Shown piece by piece: positions 4,481-50,904 of a stretch of DNA of 64,000 bases (positions are counted from its first letter, which is position 1; every line of letters starts with the position of its first letter). Source of the stretch: an uncultured Bacilli bacterium (lineage in GTDB: Bacteria; Bacillota_I; Bacilli_A; RF39; UBA660); the NCBI GenBank assembly GCA_944372545.1, contig CALVZO010000002.1:4538-68537 (forward strand), in the 5' to 3' direction. Made by a program: the position numbers and the translations under genes. The notes beneath the pieces are model-generated. The model was given only the letters and a program-made list of their open reading frames with translations, had not been told where the DNA came from and searched no databases.

Positions 4481-4548
4481 AAAAGAGATATAGAAATTAA
4501 AATAGCATTAAGTATCGTTAAATTATATTATGAAATTACAATTAAAAA

Positions 4549-7319: not shown

Positions 7320-7331
7320 TATAATAGGCGT

Positions 7332-7520
7332 AGCAGTTGAGAAAAGAGTAGTAATAGTTTAGAAATTTTATAGAGAGTTAGTGGTTGGTGCAAACTAATA
7401 ATTAATAAATTATGAACTTGCTTTTTGATGTATTAGGGTAGTTCCTATAAAGACTAAGAGTGTGAATTAAGGTGGTACCGCGGGGAAACTCGTCCTTTGG
7501 TTATCGCCTTTTTTATTTAG
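7332..7520 (+). promoter_or_regulatory. T-box leader, Leu-specific (specifier CUU)
   Basis: TTGAAT (7297..7302), 17-nt spacer, TATAAT (7320..7325). AGAGAG bulge and distal GGUGCAAAC. GAA-CUU-G at 7414..7420. T-box aattaaggtggtaccgcgg at 7465..7483, then a terminator with a U-run. UGGU matches discriminator A73. Confidence 0.85.
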
Positions 7521-21044: not shown

Positions 21045-21204
21045 TTAAATTAATGTTCCTTTTTAAATGAAAAATATAAAAAAATCATTTAGAAAGGAAC
21101 ATTTCTTATATAATAGGTTTACACTTAGTAAATTTTTTTTGACATACTTTACTATATATATGATATAATTTTCTAAAGCAATAAATTTAGAAAGGTAGTA
21201 TTTT

Positions 21205-21345
21205 GTTGCTAGCGCATGGACCAGTTTGGTTGACGAGGTTGATAGTTATCGATTTATCAGCGGGTGCTATCACGGATTAATAATTCGTTAGATATACTTT
21301 AAAAAACAAAATCAATATTGTAACAAAGGGTATATCAATATTTAC
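21205..21345 (+). ncRNA. glmS ribozyme (GlcN6P-dependent self-cleaving leader)
   Basis: agcgcatggacc...gttgacgaggttgatagttatcgatttatcagcgggtgctatcacgg parallels the B. subtilis core AGCGCC...GUUGACGAGG..GGUUAUCGAAUUUUCGGCGGAUGCC. Sits directly upstream of glmS. Confidence 0.85.
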
Positions 21346-21360
21346 AAAGGAGAATTTTTT

Positions 21361-40756: not shown

Positions 40757-40990
40757 TATAAATTAAAAAAACGGAACAAGACACGTAAATTAATGAATTA
40801 TTAAAGAGAATTAGTGGTTGGTGCAAACTAAGAATAAATAATTAATTTATATCACTTGGGAGTGATTATTGGAAATTTAAGTATAATAATCCGCTTATTA
40901 AGCGTTATAAAAATAAGGTGAATTTAAGTTCATGAATTAAGGTGGTACCGCGGGGAAACTCGGCCTTTATTTATGAACTTTTTTTTATAG
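40757..40990 (+). promoter_or_regulatory. T-box leader, Ile-specific (specifier AUC)
   Basis: TTGACT (40722..40727), 17-nt spacer, TATAAT (40745..40750). Distal GGUGCAAAC. AUC-A at 40851..40854. T-box aattaaggtggtaccgcgg at 40935..40953. Terminator gttcatgaattaagg/cctttatttatgaac plus T8. Confidence 0.85.
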
Positions 40991-41001
40991 GGAGGAATAT
41001 A

Positions 41002-44000
41002 ATGAAAAAATTTGTTAGTCTTGATAATAGGAAAGTTTCTTTAGTAGAGGAAGATATTCTAAAACGTTTTATGAAAGACAAAATATTAGATAAGTGTATT
41101 GAAAACAGAAAGAGTAGTCCTTATTGGGTATTTTATGATGGACCTGCTACTGCCAATGGAATGCCAGGATTACACCATATGGTGGCTAAATTCTTAAAAG
41201 ATAGTTTTTGTAAATATAAAACTATGCAAGGTTATAAAGTTTTAAGAAAAGTTGGTTGGGATACACATGGATTACCAGTAGAAGTTCAAGTAGAAAAAAA
41301 ATTAGGTTTTTCTTCTAAAGGTGAAATTGAAAAATATGGTATCAAAGAATTTAATGAAGAGTGTAAAAAGGCTGTTTGGGAAAATGAAAAAGCATTTTGT
41401 GATTTAACTAATAAAATGGGACAATTCATTGACTTAGAAAATAGATATATTACTTATGATAATAAATATATTGAAACAGAGTGGTGGATTTTAAAGAAAT
41501 TCTTTGAGGAAGGATTATTCTATGAAGGAAGTAAGATTCTTCCATATTGTCCTAGATGTGGAACAGGACTTGCTTCCCATGAAGTTGCCCAAGGTTACAA
41601 AGAAGTTTCTGTTGATACCGTAATTGTTCCAATGAAAAAAAAGGGAGAAGATGTATATTTTCTTGTTTGGACAACAACACCATGGACACTTTTATCTAAT
41701 GTAGCAATATGTGTAAATCCTAATGAAGAATATGTTTTATGTAAATCATTAGATTATAAATTTATTGTGGCTAAAAAACTTGCATCTTCAGTACTTGGTA
41801 ATGATTATGAAGTATTAGAAACTTATTTAGGTAAAGATTTAGAATATACTGAATATGAACAATTAATTCCCGAATTAAAAGTAGATAAAAAAGCATTCTT
41901 TGTAACATGTGATACTTATGTAACAATGGATAGTGGTACAGGTATAGTTCATATTGCCCCAGCCTTTGGAGCAGATGATGCCCTAGTTGGTAAAAATTAT
42001 AATCTTCCTTACTTAAATCCAGTAGGAGAAGATGGAAAATATACAGATGGGCCTTGGAAGAATATGTTAGTATTCGATGCTGACTTAGAAGTTATCAAAT
42101 ATTTAAAACAAAATGATAAATTATTTAAAAAACAAAAGATGGTTCATAATTATCCCCATTGTTGGCGTTGTAAATCACCACTTATCTATTATTCTAAACC
42201 ATCATTTTATTTAGAAATTACCAAAATTAAAGATAAAATAGTCGAGAATAATAAAAAAGTTAATTGGTACCCAAGTTATATTGGCGAAAAAAGATTTGGT
42301 AATTGGTTAGAAAATTTAAATGACTGGGCAATATCAAGAAGTAGATATTGGGGAACACCACTTCCATTATGGCGTTGTTCTTGCGGACATGATATTATGG
42401 TGGGATCAATTAAAGAATTAGTCGAGTTATCTATTGAAGATATCAATGAAGATATTGATTTACATCGCCCATATGTTGATGATGTTCATATAACTTGTCC
42501 AAAATGTGGAAAAGTAATGAATAGAGTTAAAGATGTTATTGACTGTTGGTTTGATTCTGGAGCAATGCCTTTTGCTCAATATCATTATCCATTTGAAAAT
42601 GAAGAATTATTTAATACGCAATTTCCAGCAGATTTTATTTGTGAAGGAATTGACCAAACAAGAGGTTGGTTTTACTCACTTTTAGTAATAAGTACTTTTG
42701 TAAAAGAAGTATCTCCTTATAAAAATGTTTTAGTAAATGAATTATTACTTGATAAAAATGGTCAAAAAATGCATAAATCAAAAGGAAATGCTATTGAACC
42801 ATTTGGTATTATGGAAAAATATGGGGCAGATACCGTAAGATGGTATTTACCTTATGTATCTCCAGTTTGGACACCTTTAAAATTTGATGAAGATGGCTTA
42901 AAAGAAGTATATTCAAAATTCTTTAATCCTCTAAAAAATACTTATAATTTCTTCTCAATGTACGCAACTACTGATAATATAGATATTGATGAGTGTAAGG
43001 TAGATATAAGTGAAAGAGAAGAAATAGATAAATGGTTAATTTCTAAATATAATAGTTTATTAAAGGTAGTTACTGAAGGTTATGAAGAATATGATTTAAA
43101 TAAAGTAGTTAGAAATATTACTAACTTTGTATCTGATGATTTATCTAATTGGTATATAAGAAGATGCCGTAATCGTTTCTGGGGTAGTACTTTAGATAAT
43201 TCTAAAAAAGCCGTTTATATAACAACTTATGAAGTTTTAGTTGGACTTTCTAAAATAATTGCTCCAATTGTACCTTTTATAAGTGAAGAGATATTTACTA
43301 AATTGACTAATAAATATTCTGTTCATACAGAAGACTTCCCTAAATATAATGAATCTCTAATAAATTCAGTTTTAGAAGAAAAAATGGATTTAGTTAAGAA
43401 TTTAATTTCGATGGGTAGAATGATTAGGGAAGAAGTTAAAATAAAAGTTAGGACTCCTTTAGAATCTGCAATTATTGATGAAGAAGTTTATAAGAAAATA
43501 GAAGATTTAATTCCTTTAATTAAAGAAGAATTAAATGTTAAAGAAATAATTAAGGAAAAAGACTTAAATAAATATATGAATATTGAAGTTAAACCTAATT
43601 ATAAAGTTGTTGGTAAATTATTTGGTTCTAAAATTAAGGATTATGAAGAATTTTTAAGAGATGTTAATTTAGAAGAATTAAAAAATAATAGTTTAGAATT
43701 TAATGATACTTTAATTAGTGAAGAGATGTATGAATTAAAAATATCTGCTAAAGAAGGATTTAATGTCTTTGTTTTAGATAATTTATTTATCATATTAAAT
43801 ACTAACTTAACAGAAGATTTAATTAATGAAGGTCATGCTAGAGAATTTGTTTCTAAAATTCAAAATTTAAGAAAAGTTAAAGATTTTGAAGTAAGTGACA
43901 GAATTAATATATATTATGACAGTGAATTATTTACAAAAATAATTAATGAATTTAGTGACTATATTAAAAATGAAACTTTAGCAATAAATATTATTAATAA

Positions 44001-44082
44001 AAAGTTAGATACAGAAGAGGTAAATATTAATGGTATTAATGTAAAAGTAGATGTTGAAAAAATAACAAATAAAAAGGACTAA
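41002..44082 (+). CDS. ileS: Isoleucine--tRNA ligase, long type-2 form
   Basis: ENRKSSPYWVFYDGPATANGMPGLHH parallels the Thermus-type IleRS2 N-terminus. KMHKSKGN (KMSKS). 1026 aa. Start moved to the ATG at 41002 downstream of the T-box. Confidence 0.93.
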   Translation: MKKFVSLDNRKVSLVEEDILKRFMKDKILDKCIENRKSSPYWVFYDGPATANGMPGLHHMVAKFLKDSFCKYKTMQGYKVLRKVGWDTHGLPVEVQVEKKLGFSSKGEIEKYGIKEFNEECKKAVWENEKAFCDLTNKMGQFIDLENRYITYDNKYIETEWWILKKFFEEGLFYEGSKILPYCPRCGTGLASHEVAQGYKEVSVDTVIVPMKKKGEDVYFLVWTTTPWTLLSNVAICVNPNEEYVLCKSLDYKFIVAKKLASSVLGNDYEVLETYLGKDLEYTEYEQLIPELKVDKKAFFVTCDTYVTMDSGTGIVHIAPAFGADDALVGKNYNLPYLNPVGEDGKYTDGPWKNMLVFDADLEVIKYLKQNDKLFKKQKMVHNYPHCWRCKSPLIYYSKPSFYLEITKIKDKIVENNKKVNWYPSYIGEKRFGNWLENLNDWAISRSRYWGTPLPLWRCSCGHDIMVGSIKELVELSIEDINEDIDLHRPYVDDVHITCPKCGKVMNRVKDVIDCWFDSGAMPFAQYHYPFENEELFNTQFPADFICEGIDQTRGWFYSLLVISTFVKEVSPYKNVLVNELLLDKNGQKMHKSKGNAIEPFGIMEKYGADTVRWYLPYVSPVWTPLKFDEDGLKEVYSKFFNPLKNTYNFFSMYATTDNIDIDECKVDISEREEIDKWLISKYNSLLKVVTEGYEEYDLNKVVRNITNFVSDDLSNWYIRRCRNRFWGSTLDNSKKAVYITTYEVLVGLSKIIAPIVPFISEEIFTKLTNKYSVHTEDFPKYNESLINSVLEEKMDLVKNLISMGRMIREEVKIKVRTPLESAIIDEEVYKKIEDLIPLIKEELNVKEIIKEKDLNKYMNIEVKPNYKVVGKLFGSKIKDYEEFLRDVNLEELKNNSLEFNDTLISEEMYELKISAKEGFNVFVLDNLFIILNTNLTEDLINEGHAREFVSKIQNLRKVKDFEVSDRINIYYDSELFTKIINEFSDYIKNETLAINIINKKLDTEEVNINGINVKVDVEKITNKKD

Positions 44083-44322: not shown

Positions 44323-44496
44323 GTTTTTATTCCTTTCGCAAGTAGATTATCATAGGACTTTTATAAAAAGATTAATTTGATTATTAACTATTACTCAAAG
44401 TTTGTTTTATAATACAAATGTATATGATTATAGTTAGTAATCAAATAAAATAGAAAGGTATAGTCCTTTATCATTATGGATTTATTATTTTTAAAT

Positions 44497-45623
44497 ATGC
44501 AAAGAAGTAAAAAATTAAAATTTGTAATTATCTTATCTCTTTTTATTTTAGAATTATTATCGGTATTTCTAACAATAAAATCTTTTTCTAATAAGGAAAT
44601 AGTAGAAATTAAAGAAGAAAATAAAATAAAAAAAGAGAAATTTTCTATGTATATAGAAAATGATACAGGAGAATATACAGAATATACTACATCAGAATAT
44701 TTTCCTGTAGGGTATAATTTAAATTTAGATAAGTCCACTTGTGTAGATAGTAATGATAATACTTTAACGGGAGTATTAACAGGAACAAATAATAGTATTA
44801 CTGTTACTAGTAATAAAACTATGTTTTGTTATCTTTATTTTGATAAGGTTTCAACTGCAGGAGAAATATTTCTTGAAAGCCCAACAACAGGATTAAATAT
44901 AACAATGGAAGGTGGATTATATAGATATCAAGGAACAAGTGTAGATAATTACATATGTTTTGGAACAAGTGATAAATCGACATGTACAGGAAATACCGAT
45001 GCATATATGTATAGAATAATAGGAATCAATTCTTCTGGACAATTAAAACTAATCAAGAAAGAGTCTTTAAATAGTTCAATGCAATGGTATAGTAGTTATT
45101 CATCAAACATAACATGGCCAAATTCAACAATATACTCAAACATAAATGGAAGTAGTTTCCTAAGTAACACAACATACGTACCAAGCGGTTGGAGTAGTAA
45201 AATATCAATAACTTCATGGAAATACGGAGATAACACAACATCAAACACAACCGTAGCAAATCTATATTCAACAGAAAATGGCTGGAGTAGTACAGTATCA
45301 GCGAAAATAGGATTATGGTATTTACATGATTATTATTATGGTTTATCTGGAGGAAATAACTGTTCATCAAATTACAGTACGTGTGTAACAAGTTGGATAC
45401 ACTTATCAAACAACGATAGTGGAGCCCCATCTACAGCGGAGTGGACCATGTCGCGTTACAGTGGAAGCAGCAGTTACAGTGCGTGGGATGTGCGTTCGAA
45501 GGCGGTGTCGCTATTGACTATTTGACTGCTTCGAGTTCGGTTCGCCCAGTCTTCTATCTAACGTCCGAGGTAGAGATAGTGAGTGGAACAGGAACATCAA
45601 GCGATCCATTTATTATAAATTAA
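44497..45623 (+). pseudogene. Frameshifted membrane-anchored surface protein with a C-terminal ...SAW.V...G.V....SSVRPVFYL motif
   Basis: Two overlapping frames (…45525 and 45441…45623) join into AWDVRS-EGGVAIDYLTASSSVRPVFYL if one base is restored near 45493..45495. N-terminal TM helix. The 3' ~200 bp are about 50-57% GC. Confidence 0.65.
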
Positions 45624-47930: not shown

Positions 47931-48063
47931 ATTTATAATCTCCTTATTTGCTAATTAATTTTATGATGGAAATAAAAATAAATGCAATTTTTTAAAAAAA
48001 TTTTCATTAAAAAAAAGGAAATCGAGAATAAAAATCGAAAATAAGTAATGAAGGGAGGAAAAT

Positions 48064-50118
48064 ATGAAAAAATTAAATGCAGTAAGACAAAAAGATTTGC
48101 AAGACTGTGGAGTATGCGTAATGCAGTGGATTATTCAGTATTATGATGGGTATGTTTCTTTAGAAAGATTAAGAAATGATACTTATACTGATAAATTTGG
48201 AACAACTGCTTATCACATAGTTAATGCCTTTTTGAAGTGGAATTTTGATGCTTTAGGAATTTATATTAAAGATATAAATGATAAAAATTTAAAGTTTCCA
48301 CTTATTGCCCATTTAAAATTAGATAATGGTTTACTCCATTTTGTAGTTGTAAGATTTATAAAAGGTAAATACGTATACTTAATGGACCCGGGAGTTGGGT
48401 ATACAAAAATGAATTTCAAAGAATTTCAAAGATTATTTACTGGTAATGTCATCGTTGTAAGGCCAAGAGGCAAAATCTTAAAATGTGAAGAAGGAATTTC
48501 TATATTTGAATTGTTTGGCAAAATATTAAATGAGGAAAAGTTTTTAATTATTAAAATTGTTATAACAAGTCTTATATGGACAATTTTAGCAATAATATCT
48601 TCCTATTATTTAAAAGTTGCAAGTAATATTCTTAATTATGATATAAAACTTTTACGATTTGTAATATTTGTGTTTGGTATTGTTATATTGTTAAAAGTAT
48701 TTATGTTATATATAAGAGAGTATTATGAAAATCACTTAAATAATCTTGTAGATACTTATTTGTACCCTGATTTTATAAGTCATTTATTTTCTCTCCCTTT
48801 GAAAACCATCAAAAATAGGACAACTGGCGAGATAATTTCAAGAGTAGAAGAATTAGGAAGCATTAAAAACTTATTTTCAGATATTTTTGTAACTTGCTTT
48901 TTGGACTCATTTATGATGTTAATATCTATAATTATTTTATACATGATTAATGGTAGTTTGGCAAATATCTTGTTATTATTTATTATAATATATAGTATAT
49001 TTGGGTATTTATTTAGTAAAATGATGTATAAAAAAGTATTAGAGAATATCGATTATAATGCTAATTTTAATAGTGTATTAATCGAAAATGTCAAAATGTT
49101 TGATAGTATTAAGCATTTACAAGTGACAGATATTATTTTAAATAAAATTGAATTTGCCTTAGCAAAATATTTATTAAGTAATTTTAAATTTACTAGTTTT
49201 TATAATATTTTTAATATGATTAAAGACTATATTATTGAGATATGTTTTTTCTTAATTAATAGTTATGGTTTTTTTAAAGTAATAAATGGTGATATTAATA
49301 TAGTTGATTTATTTACTTTTAATCTATTACTATCATATAGTATAGAACCTGTGAAAAATATAATAAATTTGTTACCAAAATACAATTATATAAAAGCATC
49401 ATTTATGAAAATAAAAGAATTTTTAAATATTGAAGAAGAGAAACTTATTAAAAATAATAATAAATTAAATGGGAATATAAGTTTTGTTGATGTATGGTAT
49501 TCATATAACGATTATGATTATGCTTTAAAAAATATTAATTTAGAAATAAAAGAAAATACTCATGTGCTACTTAATGGAACATCTGGTTGTGGAAAAAGTA
49601 CTATTTGTAAACTTATAAATAAAGATAGTATTCCAAGTAAAGGAAGTATTTATTTAGATAAAGTAAACATTTTAGATATTGACTTATATACAATAAAAAA
49701 TAATATTTTATATGTATCACAAAATGAAGAACTCTTTTATGGAACAATTAAAGATAATATTATATTAGATAGAAATATATCTAATTCTTTATTTCATCAA
49801 GTTTGTCAAATATGTGAAATAGATAGTATTGTAGCCAAAAAATCTTTGCGTTATGATTCACTACTTGATCCAGATTCCACTAATATTTCAGGGGGAGAAA
49901 AGCAAAGAATTATTTTAGCAAGAGGTCTTTTAAAAGATTCTAAAATAATAATTTTAGATGAGGCATTATCGGAAGTGGATATATCATTAGAAAATAAAAT
50001 TATTAAAAATATAAGGAATTTTTATAAAAATAATACATTAATTTATATATCTCATAAAAATCAAATTAAAAATTTTGAAAACATAATAAATATAGGAGAA
50101 GATAATGGAATACTTTAA
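48064..50118 (+). CDS. Peptidase C39 domain-containing ABC transporter (bacteriocin processing/export)
   Basis: N-terminal C39 motif QKDLQDCGVCVMQ with downstream HFVVV and MDPG. TMD present. Walker A GTSGCGKST, signature SGGEKQR and Walker B ILDEALSEVD. Confidence 0.88.
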   Translation: MKKLNAVRQKDLQDCGVCVMQWIIQYYDGYVSLERLRNDTYTDKFGTTAYHIVNAFLKWNFDALGIYIKDINDKNLKFPLIAHLKLDNGLLHFVVVRFIKGKYVYLMDPGVGYTKMNFKEFQRLFTGNVIVVRPRGKILKCEEGISIFELFGKILNEEKFLIIKIVITSLIWTILAIISSYYLKVASNILNYDIKLLRFVIFVFGIVILLKVFMLYIREYYENHLNNLVDTYLYPDFISHLFSLPLKTIKNRTTGEIISRVEELGSIKNLFSDIFVTCFLDSFMMLISIIILYMINGSLANILLLFIIIYSIFGYLFSKMMYKKVLENIDYNANFNSVLIENVKMFDSIKHLQVTDIILNKIEFALAKYLLSNFKFTSFYNIFNMIKDYIIEICFFLINSYGFFKVINGDINIVDLFTFNLLLSYSIEPVKNIINLLPKYNYIKASFMKIKEFLNIEEEKLIKNNNKLNGNISFVDVWYSYNDYDYALKNINLEIKENTHVLLNGTSGCGKSTICKLINKDSIPSKGSIYLDKVNILDIDLYTIKNNILYVSQNEELFYGTIKDNIILDRNISNSLFHQVCQICEIDSIVAKKSLRYDSLLDPDSTNISGGEKQRIILARGLLKDSKIIILDEALSEVDISLENKIIKNIRNFYKNNTLIYISHKNQIKNFENIINIGEDNGIL

Positions 50119-50518
50119 AGTTAATTATGGAGTACTTCAAAATTTAAGACAAATAAAGTTTTATAAAATAGTATTAATTATTCTTATAATATTGGTTTTG
50201 TTATTGAAAGTTGCTCATAATTCTATAGTTTGGCAACATATTGAGTGTGAAAGTATCTATATAAATGATAATCTTTCTTTGACAATTAATGTACAACTCT
50301 CTGATAAGTTGAAGAAAGCAAAGTATATAACATTTAATGATGCGAAAGCCAATATTGATAAAATAAATTATGGTGATTATGAAATGATAAGTAATGAAAT
50401 ATATCAAAATATAAATTTAATTATAGATAGAAAGTTTTCTAATAATGAAGTAGGTGTTTTAAAAATCTATTATGAAGAGAAAAGCATCTTAAAAATTGTT
50501 TTAGATTTATTTAAGTAA
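50105..50518 (+). CDS. Small single-pass membrane protein (candidate export accessory or immunity protein)
   Basis: 137 aa with one N-terminal TM helix. 14-nt overlap with the ABC gene. No motif recognised. Confidence 0.45.
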   Translation: MEYFKVNYGVLQNLRQIKFYKIVLIILIILVLLLKVAHNSIVWQHIECESIYINDNLSLTINVQLSDKLKKAKYITFNDAKANIDKINYGDYEMISNEIYQNINLIIDRKFSNNEVGVLKIYYEEKSILKIVLDLFK

Positions 50519-50531
50519 AAGGAGGTAATAT

Positions 50532-50675
50532 ATGGAGTATTTAAGTAATGAAGAAGCATTAAATGTATCTGGGGGAGCCTTTGGTAAAGGACTAATATTT
50601 GGTATAATTGGTGGAACTTTAGTATTCTTATGTGGTCTTATTGATGGGTTTATAAATCCCAAAAAATGTAATTAG
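50532..50675 (+). CDS. Double-glycine-leader peptide 1 (47 aa, candidate class II bacteriocin precursor; not in the ORF track)
   Basis: MEYLSNEEALNVSGG|AFGKGLIFGIIGGTLVFLCGLIDGFINPKKCN. The leader has L-12, S-11, E-8, V-4, G-2 and G-1. AGGAGGT RBS. GxxxG motifs in the mature part. Confidence 0.75.
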   Translation: MEYLSNEEALNVSGGAFGKGLIFGIIGGTLVFLCGLIDGFINPKKCN

Positions 50676-50683
50676 GAGGTAAT

Positions 50684-50845
50684 ATGTTAGCAAAAGAAGA
50701 ATTAATTGAAGTAAGAGGGGGAGGAATTACCGCAACTTTCTTAAATTCAATGTCAAGATTAATTGAAACTTTTTTCAATTTAGGGCAAAGTGTTGGCTCT
50801 TCCCTAAGAAGAGTAATGAGTAAAAAAGTTTGTAAAATGAGTTAA
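50684..50845 (+). CDS. Double-glycine-leader peptide 2 (53 aa, candidate class II bacteriocin precursor; not in the ORF track)
   Basis: MLAKEELIEVRGG|GITATFLNSMSRLIETFFNLGQSVGSSLRRVMSKKVCKMS. The leader has L-12, E-8, L-7, V-4, G-2 and G-1. AGGAGGT RBS. Cationic amphipathic mature part. Confidence 0.75.
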   Translation: MLAKEELIEVRGGGITATFLNSMSRLIETFFNLGQSVGSSLRRVMSKKVCKMS

Positions 50846-50875
50846 CTGAAATTTTACAAATTACTAGACTTTTTG

Positions 50876-50904
50876 TTGTCAAATGAGTGTGTAAGTGGTA
50901 TAAT
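50876..50904 (+). promoter_or_regulatory. rpsU promoter
   Basis: TTGTCA (50876..50881), 17-nt spacer, extended -10 TGgTATAAT (50896..50904). Confidence 0.6.

Follow-up and report, generated by a model that had tools for sequence, protein, structure and literature searches.

What does a peptidase-bearing exporter secrete when, in an uncultured gut bacterium, it stands directly ahead of two very small genes? We addressed this question for a 64,000-nucleotide stretch of an uncultured Bacilli bacterium (GTDB lineage RF39, UBA660; assembly GCA_944372545.1, contig CALVZO010000002.1, forward-strand positions 4,538 to 68,537), hereafter the window, in which four tightly packed forward-strand genes at 48064-50845 encode an ATP-binding cassette (ABC) exporter, a 137-amino-acid (aa) membrane protein and two peptide precursors, here called pep1 and pep2. 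The operon was previously unannotated, and none of its four proteins is named in any source checked. From gene order, sequence motifs and comparison with relatives, we conclude that it probably encodes a chromosomal two-peptide bacteriocin resembling those of class IIb and belonging to a previously unnamed family, whose activity we infer.

If the peptides are active, they would constitute a new two-peptide bacteriocin family from uncultured Bacilli of low guanine-plus-cytosine (GC) content inhabiting ruminant, rabbit and human guts, a group for which we know of no cultured representatives to screen. Mining on a large scale has shown that gut genomes are rich in class II bacteriocins (PMC12648112), and a new family is therefore not surprising in itself; some of its members may already stand unnamed in such mining catalogues.

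Two conserved peptide genes behind an intact peptidase-ABC exporter

The 684-aa exporter (48064..50118) is followed by the gene for the 137-aa single-pass protein (50105..50518), the start of which overlaps the exporter stop by 14 nucleotides (nt), and then by the precursors of pep1 (47 aa; 50532..50675) and pep2 (53 aa; 50684..50845), which are separated by only 8 nt, with the pep1 stop codon lying inside the pep2 Shine-Dalgarno sequence. An earlier note on this DNA, made from the letters alone, had translated the two small open reading frames by hand and placed AGGAGGT at optimal spacing before each. Ribosome-binding sites are indeed present, with a spacing of 6 nt for pep1; for pep2 it is only 4 nt, and the pep1 stop overlaps the site. 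The overlapping stop and start, and the stop codon within a Shine-Dalgarno sequence, lead us to propose that translation is coupled at both junctions, exporter with 137-aa partner and pep1 with pep2, and that all four genes would be transcribed together. GC content is 20-30% across the region with no step at the block, as for native base composition.

Both small reading frames are real genes under purifying selection. A strict pattern for double-glycine leaders was matched in the 64-kb window by pep1 and pep2 only, with 0.01 matches expected in simulated sequence, and both genes are intact in about 20 species-level relatives in which the order exporter, pep1, pep2 is constant. In pairwise comparisons at synonymous divergences (dS) of 0.6-1.9, ratios of non-synonymous to synonymous substitution (dN/dS) were 0.11-0.50 for pep1 and 0.09-0.28 for pep2, compared with 0.20-0.33 for the exporter. 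A word-index search recovered pep2 homologues of 74-77% identity, each with a length of 53 aa; the same search with pep1 recovered only pep1 itself.

The exporter carries the Pfam domains Peptidase_C39 (E 7e-29), ABC_membrane and ABC_tran, in an architecture of N-terminal C39 cysteine protease, six-helix membrane domain and nucleotide-binding domain. Its best match among solved structures is the peptidase-containing ABC transporter PCAT1 of Clostridium thermocellum (4ry2, E 3e-93), followed by ComA (E 8e-81), with both aligned end to end. The catalytic context QDCGVC, to which the earlier note had drawn attention, occupies residues 13-18, and the protease residues Q9, C15, H92 and D108, shared with PCAT1 and ComA, are invariant in an alignment of 18 orthologues. 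The ATPase motifs (Walker A, signature, Walker B and H-loop) show equal invariance there and are likewise shared with PCAT1 and ComA. The invariant residues and the full-length alignment to PCAT1 and ComA therefore identify an intact peptidase-containing ABC transporter. Its closest NCBIfam model, TIGR01193 ('peptide cleavage/export ABC transporter'), scored 375.5 bits, below the cut-off of 523.85, and NF045998 ('Mbov_0121 family peptidase domain-containing ABC transporter') scored 290 bits against a cut-off of 500. On these scores we regard the exporter as a divergent member of the superfamily rather than one of the curated TIGR01193 subfamily; it is only ~30-35% identical to PCAT1 and ComA and, unlike them, is paired with a small single-pass protein. 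The likeness to PCAT1 extends to its substrate: when the two peptide profiles were compared with PDB sequences, each was matched best, at the weak level of E 0.75, by the CtA leader, CtA being a PCAT1 substrate.

Anatomy of the peptide pair and its likeness to class IIb bacteriocins

The pep1 precursor begins with the 15-aa leader MEYLSNEEALNVSGG (50532-50576), and its predicted mature form, AFGKGLIFGIIGGTLVFLCGLIDGFINPKKCN, is a hydrophobic peptide of 32 aa with an invariant G20xxxG24 and a conserved Cys31. For pep2, a 13-aa leader MLAKEELIEVRGG (50684-50722) precedes the predicted mature GITATFLNSMSRLIETFFNLGQSVGSSLRRVMSKKVCKMS, which is 40 aa long, amphipathic and of charge +5, with an invariant G21xxxG25 and a conserved Cys37. 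We placed the pep2 cleavage site after the second glycine of a GGG run because the next residue varies in other species. Both leaders fit the double-glycine consensus, as had been claimed from the window alone, and the same features recur in both peptides across ~20 lineages: leucine at -12, glutamate at -8, hydrophobic residues at -7 and -4, and a Gly-Gly end.

The mature regions are likewise constrained across these lineages. Mature pep1 spans 31-36 aa with a grand average of hydropathy of ~1.0 and ends in ...G-x3-G-x2-(N/S)-P-x2-C-(N), while mature pep2 spans 33-41 aa, is amphipathic with a maximum helical moment of ~0.6, and typically carries a charge of +3 to +6, the exceptions being L023 and L024 at 0 and -1; its description as cationic and amphipathic thus holds for the window and usually for its orthologues. 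Each peptide has exactly one invariant GxxxG, which starts at mature residue 17-23 in both, with a single exception in which L022 pep1 has GxxxA. Of the earlier description of pep1 as a hydrophobic peptide with GxxxG motifs and two cysteines, the hydrophobicity and one invariant GxxxG stand; only C46 (mature Cys31) is conserved, and C34 is unique to the window genome.

Wherever a conserved cysteine is present, its distance from the GxxxG motif is constant, at 11 residues past the first glycine in pep1 and 16 in pep2. Approximately 19 lineages have the cysteine in both peptides and two dissimilar lineages (L024 and L068) have it in neither; a mixed case, with cysteine in one peptide alone, was not found among the lineages compared. 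If cysteine had been lost independently in the two peptides, the chance that both losses would fall in one and the same pair of lineages is ~1 in 200. The presence of cysteine in both peptides or neither suggests an interchain disulfide, and the equal distances of the GxxxG motifs from the N-termini, with the cysteines on the same side, would fit a parallel pair joined by such a bond. These rules (one GxxxG per peptide, fixed GxxxG-Cys spacing, cysteine in both or neither) point to a covalent heterodimer. A literature search found no paper on disulfide-linked two-peptide bacteriocins, and to our knowledge no class IIb pair with an interchain disulfide has been described. The full version of this idea, a heterodimer locked covalently by GxxxG packing and an interchain disulfide and exported with a minimal 137-aa partner resembling the MAG1140 family of Mycoplasmopsis, is possible but doubtful; if true, it would be the first disulfide-linked two-peptide bacteriocin, and would offer a testable function for the Mycoplasmopsis gene pair discussed below.

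The class IIb systems that serve for comparison (lactococcin G/enterocin 1071, plantaricins EF and JK, lactobin A/cerein 7B) likewise have a pair of small neighbouring genes within a single operon, double-glycine leaders (here with cleavage predicted from the letters of the leader) served by a dedicated C39 ABC transporter, and mature peptides of ~30-40 aa with GxxxG near residue 20 in both, one hydrophobic and its partner cationic and amphipathic. As a mark of class IIb, the helix-helix motif in both peptides may be GxxxG or else AxxxA or SxxxS. The GxxxG motif is found in all characterised class IIb bacteriocins, where it mediates helix-helix pairing, and stands at G18xxxG22 in lactococcin G beta and G20xxxG24 in plantaricin E (PMC2850506).

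Profile comparison points in the same direction at scores below threshold. Window pep1 reached 13.1 bits against NF038034 (cut-off 37), and window pep2 matched none of the named class IIb families TIGR03949, NF038034, NF038035 and PF10439. When orthologues were scanned one by one, recurrent matches were to class II families and almost nothing else, all sub-threshold and with best E-values from 8e-6 to 7e-4. Among pep1 orthologues, 14/20 matched TIGR03949 (class IIb, lactobin A/cerein 7B; best E 8e-6), 14/20 NF038034 (lactococcin G-beta/enterocin 1071B), 5/20 TIGR01847 and 4/5 PF10439; among pep2 orthologues, 7/20 matched NF038034 and 4/20 NF038035. The two adjacent genes with apparently coupled translation, a GxxxG in each peptide and these weak matches to class IIb families agree with the class IIb-type pair proposed at the outset, and the family scans of the peptides and their orthologues, in which no named family claims them, agree with the view that neither mature sequence is a known bacteriocin.

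The locus also differs from class IIb systems. The window operon has no recognisable immunity gene, whereas class IIb operons are said always to include one (PMC2850506); leaders in the window family are only 12-16 aa long; each peptide has one co-varying cysteine at fixed spacing; the small 137-aa partner stands in place of an LcnD-type accessory protein of ~460 aa; and the locus has a vertically conserved chromosomal position in contrast to a plasmid or island.

Taken together, the features suggest the following sequence of events. The C39 domain (Q9, C15, H92, D108) would recognise the amphipathic leaders through the hydrophobic residues at -4, -7 and -12 and Glu -8 and cut after Gly-Gly, and the ATP-driven membrane domain would export mature peptides of 32 and 40 aa. 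Outside the cell, pep1 and pep2 would pair in parallel through their single GxxxG motifs, ~20 residues from the new N-termini, and in most lineages the pair may be locked by a disulfide between the conserved cysteines on the C-terminal side. The heterodimer would then insert into and permeabilise the membrane of related bacteria, probably via a membrane-protein receptor as in other class IIb bacteriocins, with the 137-aa protein acting most likely as the membrane partner of the exporter rather than as a peptide-specific immunity protein.

Variants of the peptide complement were observed in two lineages. In L060, the module includes a third double-glycine peptide, which is pep1-like (2421-2281). 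L061 encodes an extra leaderless 53-aa membrane peptide (501-340) with a pep2-like C-terminus that ends in cysteine, and its pep1 orthologue (~805-668, minus strand) has a good Shine-Dalgarno sequence followed by ATA at the expected start, with no ATG, GTG or TTG; the ATA may represent either an unusual start codon or a mistake in the assembly.

The 137-aa membrane protein

The product of 50105..50518 comprises a cytoplasmic N-terminal tail, a transmembrane helix (residues 19-39), an extracellular all-beta domain (41-127) and a C-terminal helix, as seen in an AlphaFold2 model built with the family alignment (mean predicted local distance difference test score, pLDDT, 87.7). A word-index search recovered only the protein itself, while an exhaustive search of 1.84 billion representative proteins returned 46 relatives, nearly all of 131-137 aa. 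In three of the most distant of these, the context was again an ABC gene (where the contig reaches), a 137-aa-type protein and two double-glycine peptides. The earlier note had recorded it as only a single-pass membrane protein; single-pass it is, but it is not a random neighbour, as its family travels with this exporter type.

No Pfam family was found for the protein, and Foldseek searches with the model gave nothing convincing (best E 0.04). The NCBIfam model NF045999 ('MAG1140 family protein') was, however, matched full-length by 12/42 family members, all below the cut-off of 35 bits (best E 5e-7; best shown score 28.6 bits); the window's own protein gave no match, although it shares the adjacency to a peptidase-ABC gene. 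NF045999 is numbered next to NF045998, the family matched by the exporter, and the Mycoplasmopsis NF045998/NF045999 pair resembles the window pair in the size of the small protein (~126-137 aa) and its position adjoining a peptidase-ABC gene, with window-family scores all below the respective cut-offs of 500 and 35 bits. We found no published function for the Mycoplasmopsis pair, and met Mbov_0121 in the literature only in virulence-factor lists; the small partner thereby links the gut loci to a conserved, functionless gene pair of Mycoplasmopsis pathogens.

Two familiar roles were tried and rejected. Like LcnD/ComB (HlyD-like) proteins and PedC, the 137-aa protein has a single N-terminal anchor, an extracellular domain and a gene beside that of an ABC transporter. 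It is, however, one third the size of LcnD/ComB proteins and has no sequence homology to them: hhalign gave a probability of 0.2% against the Lactococcus pJM3E accessory protein, there was no Pfam or NCBIfam HlyD match, and the only fold echoes were weak Foldseek matches that include the efflux adaptor proteins MacA, MexA, AcrA, CusB and BesA. A PedC-like thiol-disulfide accessory was rejected on its all-beta fold, which is not that of thioredoxin, and the lack of a CxxC motif.

The choice that remains is between a partner of the transporter and an immunity protein, in which, by analogy with lantibiotic LanI-type proteins, the surface beta domain would bind the mature peptides at the producer's membrane and the exporter would need no accessory. 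In favour of immunity are the rapid evolution of the protein, the fastest in the block (identity 30-50%; dN/dS 0.33-0.67), its modest partial correlations with the peptides (0.30-0.35), the presence of no other immunity candidate in the operon, and the provision in the class IIb literature for an accessory protein possibly involved in immunity and/or secretion (PMC2850506). Its best-conserved residues, however, are N7, Y8 and L11 of the cytoplasmic tail together with the C-terminal helix, not the exposed domain; its divergence tracks that of the ABC protein (rho 0.79) more than that of the peptides (0.58 and 0.39); coupled translation appears to tie its start to the ABC gene; its distant relatives include proteins that match the MAG1140 family, whose Mycoplasmopsis members are paired with transporters of the peptidase-ABC type; and L068 and L078 retain both peptides without it. 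We therefore favour, on the conservation pattern, the ABC-tracking divergence and the MAG1140 matches, a probable role as transporter partner, and consider an immunity protein unlikely. L068 and L078 keep the ABC gene as well, so the 137-aa gene is not indispensable to the module.

In L068, a 237-aa multi-pass membrane protein (4893-4180) is encoded just upstream of the ABC gene and could be an immunity candidate. Separately, five stretches of the 1876-aa protein P0037 match the beta domain of the 137-aa protein, so this domain is also found in repeated form within a giant protein.

Chromosomal position, competing explanations and flanking elements

The four-gene block was found in genomic contexts fetched from ruminant gut metagenomes and in seven GTDB species representatives, all metagenome-assembled genomes labelled 'uncultured Bacilli bacterium' from goat and rabbit gut, as well as on more distant contigs and on contigs reached via the spoIIIAH-like gene, including human gut assemblies. 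In every locus with a visible flank it is divergent from a monocistronic spoIIIAH-like gene, and in most loci rpsU-yqeY-yabP-yqfD come next. L023 and L078 depart from this, with a gene other than rpsU after pep2; the contig of L023 breaks off within the ABC gene, which hides its upstream flank. The site is occupied by different genes on many contigs whose spoIIIAH-like gene is a related one (42-69% identity; L025, L028-L058, L081-L092). Two human gut contigs, L081 (1-4997) and L093 (1-4926), match at 96.4% identity on the right side of the spoIIIAH-like gene and differ entirely on its left, where L081 has murG-murB-ftsQ and L093 has the ABC block and then rpsU-yqeY, with the rearrangement breakpoint exactly at the block edge.

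The earlier suggestion that the block might be an inserted island did not survive this comparison. A recent insertion is ruled out by its identical position in the seven species representatives and many metagenome contigs, and by the lack of a GC anomaly; a universal core gene is ruled out by the many spoIIIAH-like-bearing lineages that lack the block at that site and by the contrast between L081 and L093. The block is instead an old, mostly vertically inherited module that has been lost or relocated in some lineages.

Several observations weigh against reading this module as a bacteriocin. The peptides all score below the curated cut-offs of the bacteriocin families, and their weak matches owe part of the signal to the leader. 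At 12-16 aa, leaders lie at or below the 15-30 aa quoted for class IIb. In agreement with the earlier note, there is no recognisable immunity gene in the operon, with nothing between pep2 and the rpsU promoter, and no histidine kinase or response regulator in the conserved neighbourhood of any locus; a modification enzyme is also lacking in that neighbourhood. The dispensability of the 137-aa gene in L068 and L078 counts similarly, and the producers are gut anaerobes, in which extracellular disulfide formation is not assured. Finally, a fixed locus, purifying selection and a peptide better conserved than its own transporter (among the closest relatives, pep2 identity is 74-91% vs 59-78% for the transporter) are less typical of strain-variable bacteriocin islands. 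The lack of an immunity gene, combined with a clade-wide fixed position, poses the question of how producers would tolerate such a toxin and what keeps it in the clade.

In a rival reading, the peptides would not be weapons against competitors and would serve a conserved 'self' function of the clade from a core-genome operon kept next to sporulation genes, as a secreted signal pair, as agents of sibling killing (of the cannibalism or fratricide type) or as an envelope factor tied to sporulation. The spoIIIAH-like neighbour, constant wherever the flank is visible, and yabP/yqfD downstream would suit such a function, as would the native base composition, the absence of an immunity gene, the selection on pep2 noted above and a conserved motif, not sigma-70-like, in the shared intergenic region (AAAAAAAAGGAAATC, described below). 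However, the surroundings contain neither a sensor kinase nor a response regulator nor any other receptor gene, which also distinguishes the locus from three-component pheromone systems of the ComC/BlpC/PlnA type; the mature peptides (31-41 aa, membrane-helix-like, with GxxxG) resemble pore-forming class IIb peptides and not pheromones; many lineages that bear the spoIIIAH-like gene lack the block at the site, so the block is not needed for sporulation; L023 and L078 have no rpsU after pep2; and common descent alone may account for the spoIIIAH-like neighbour. We accordingly give a self function little credence, and retain a secreted class IIb-like pair as the probable explanation. Still less credible is that pep1 and pep2 are two independent one-peptide (class IId-like) bacteriocins, or a bacteriocin and an inducing peptide, that share an exporter and form no obligate heterodimer: many class II loci do have several unrelated double-glycine peptides behind one transporter, L060 has its third peptide, and the leaders of pep1 and pep2 are homologous (their profiles align at 95.6% probability in hhalign, mostly via the leaders), as for any substrates of one C39 domain, but neither peptide type is found without the other, their order is constant and their translation apparently coupled, each has one invariant GxxxG at the same distance from the predicted cleavage site, cysteine is gained or lost in both together, their divergences remain correlated after removal of the ABC signal (partial rho 0.43), and there is no kinase or regulator for an inducer.

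Three non-coding elements border the block, all on the forward strand. The motif AAAAAAAAGGAAATC (A8-GGAAATC; 48009..48023), a candidate promoter or operator, lies between the ABC gene and the divergent spoIIIAH-like gene, ~40-55 nt before the ABC start codon; in alignment A1 it is unchanged across five species, in contrast to the variable bases on either side. No good sigma-70 promoter match was reported at the motif, and comparison by eye with SigH, SigE, SigG and sigma-A sites gave no consistent fit. At the other end, an AT-rich hairpin (50828..50861; minimum free energy -11.3 kcal/mol, z -1.55) has its 5' arm in the pep2 Cys-Lys codons and its 3' arm in the conserved non-coding TTTACAAA, followed by a T-run. 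Its eight pairs are kept in 8 species and are essentially invariant, and therefore provide no proof by covariation; a standard scan found no terminator at 50828-50861. The hairpin may act as a weak terminator or attenuator between the operon and rpsU, which has its own near-consensus promoter with an extended -10 element (TTGTCA-17-TG-TATAAT; 50876..50904; 11/12 match, conserved in five species) and is therefore not dependent on the peptide operon.

Elsewhere in the window, 44476-45525 encodes a 349-aa protein rich in serine, threonine and asparagine, with an N-terminal hydrophobic segment, no Pfam match on record and a locally raised GC content of 0.30-0.34; its gene adjoins a small helix-turn-helix gene on the opposite strand. 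Two T-box leaders and a glmS ribozyme, at 40765-40970, 7328-7500 and 21200-21346, score above the Rfam gathering thresholds, and one of the T-box leaders lies directly upstream of an ileS-like gene (40942-44082).

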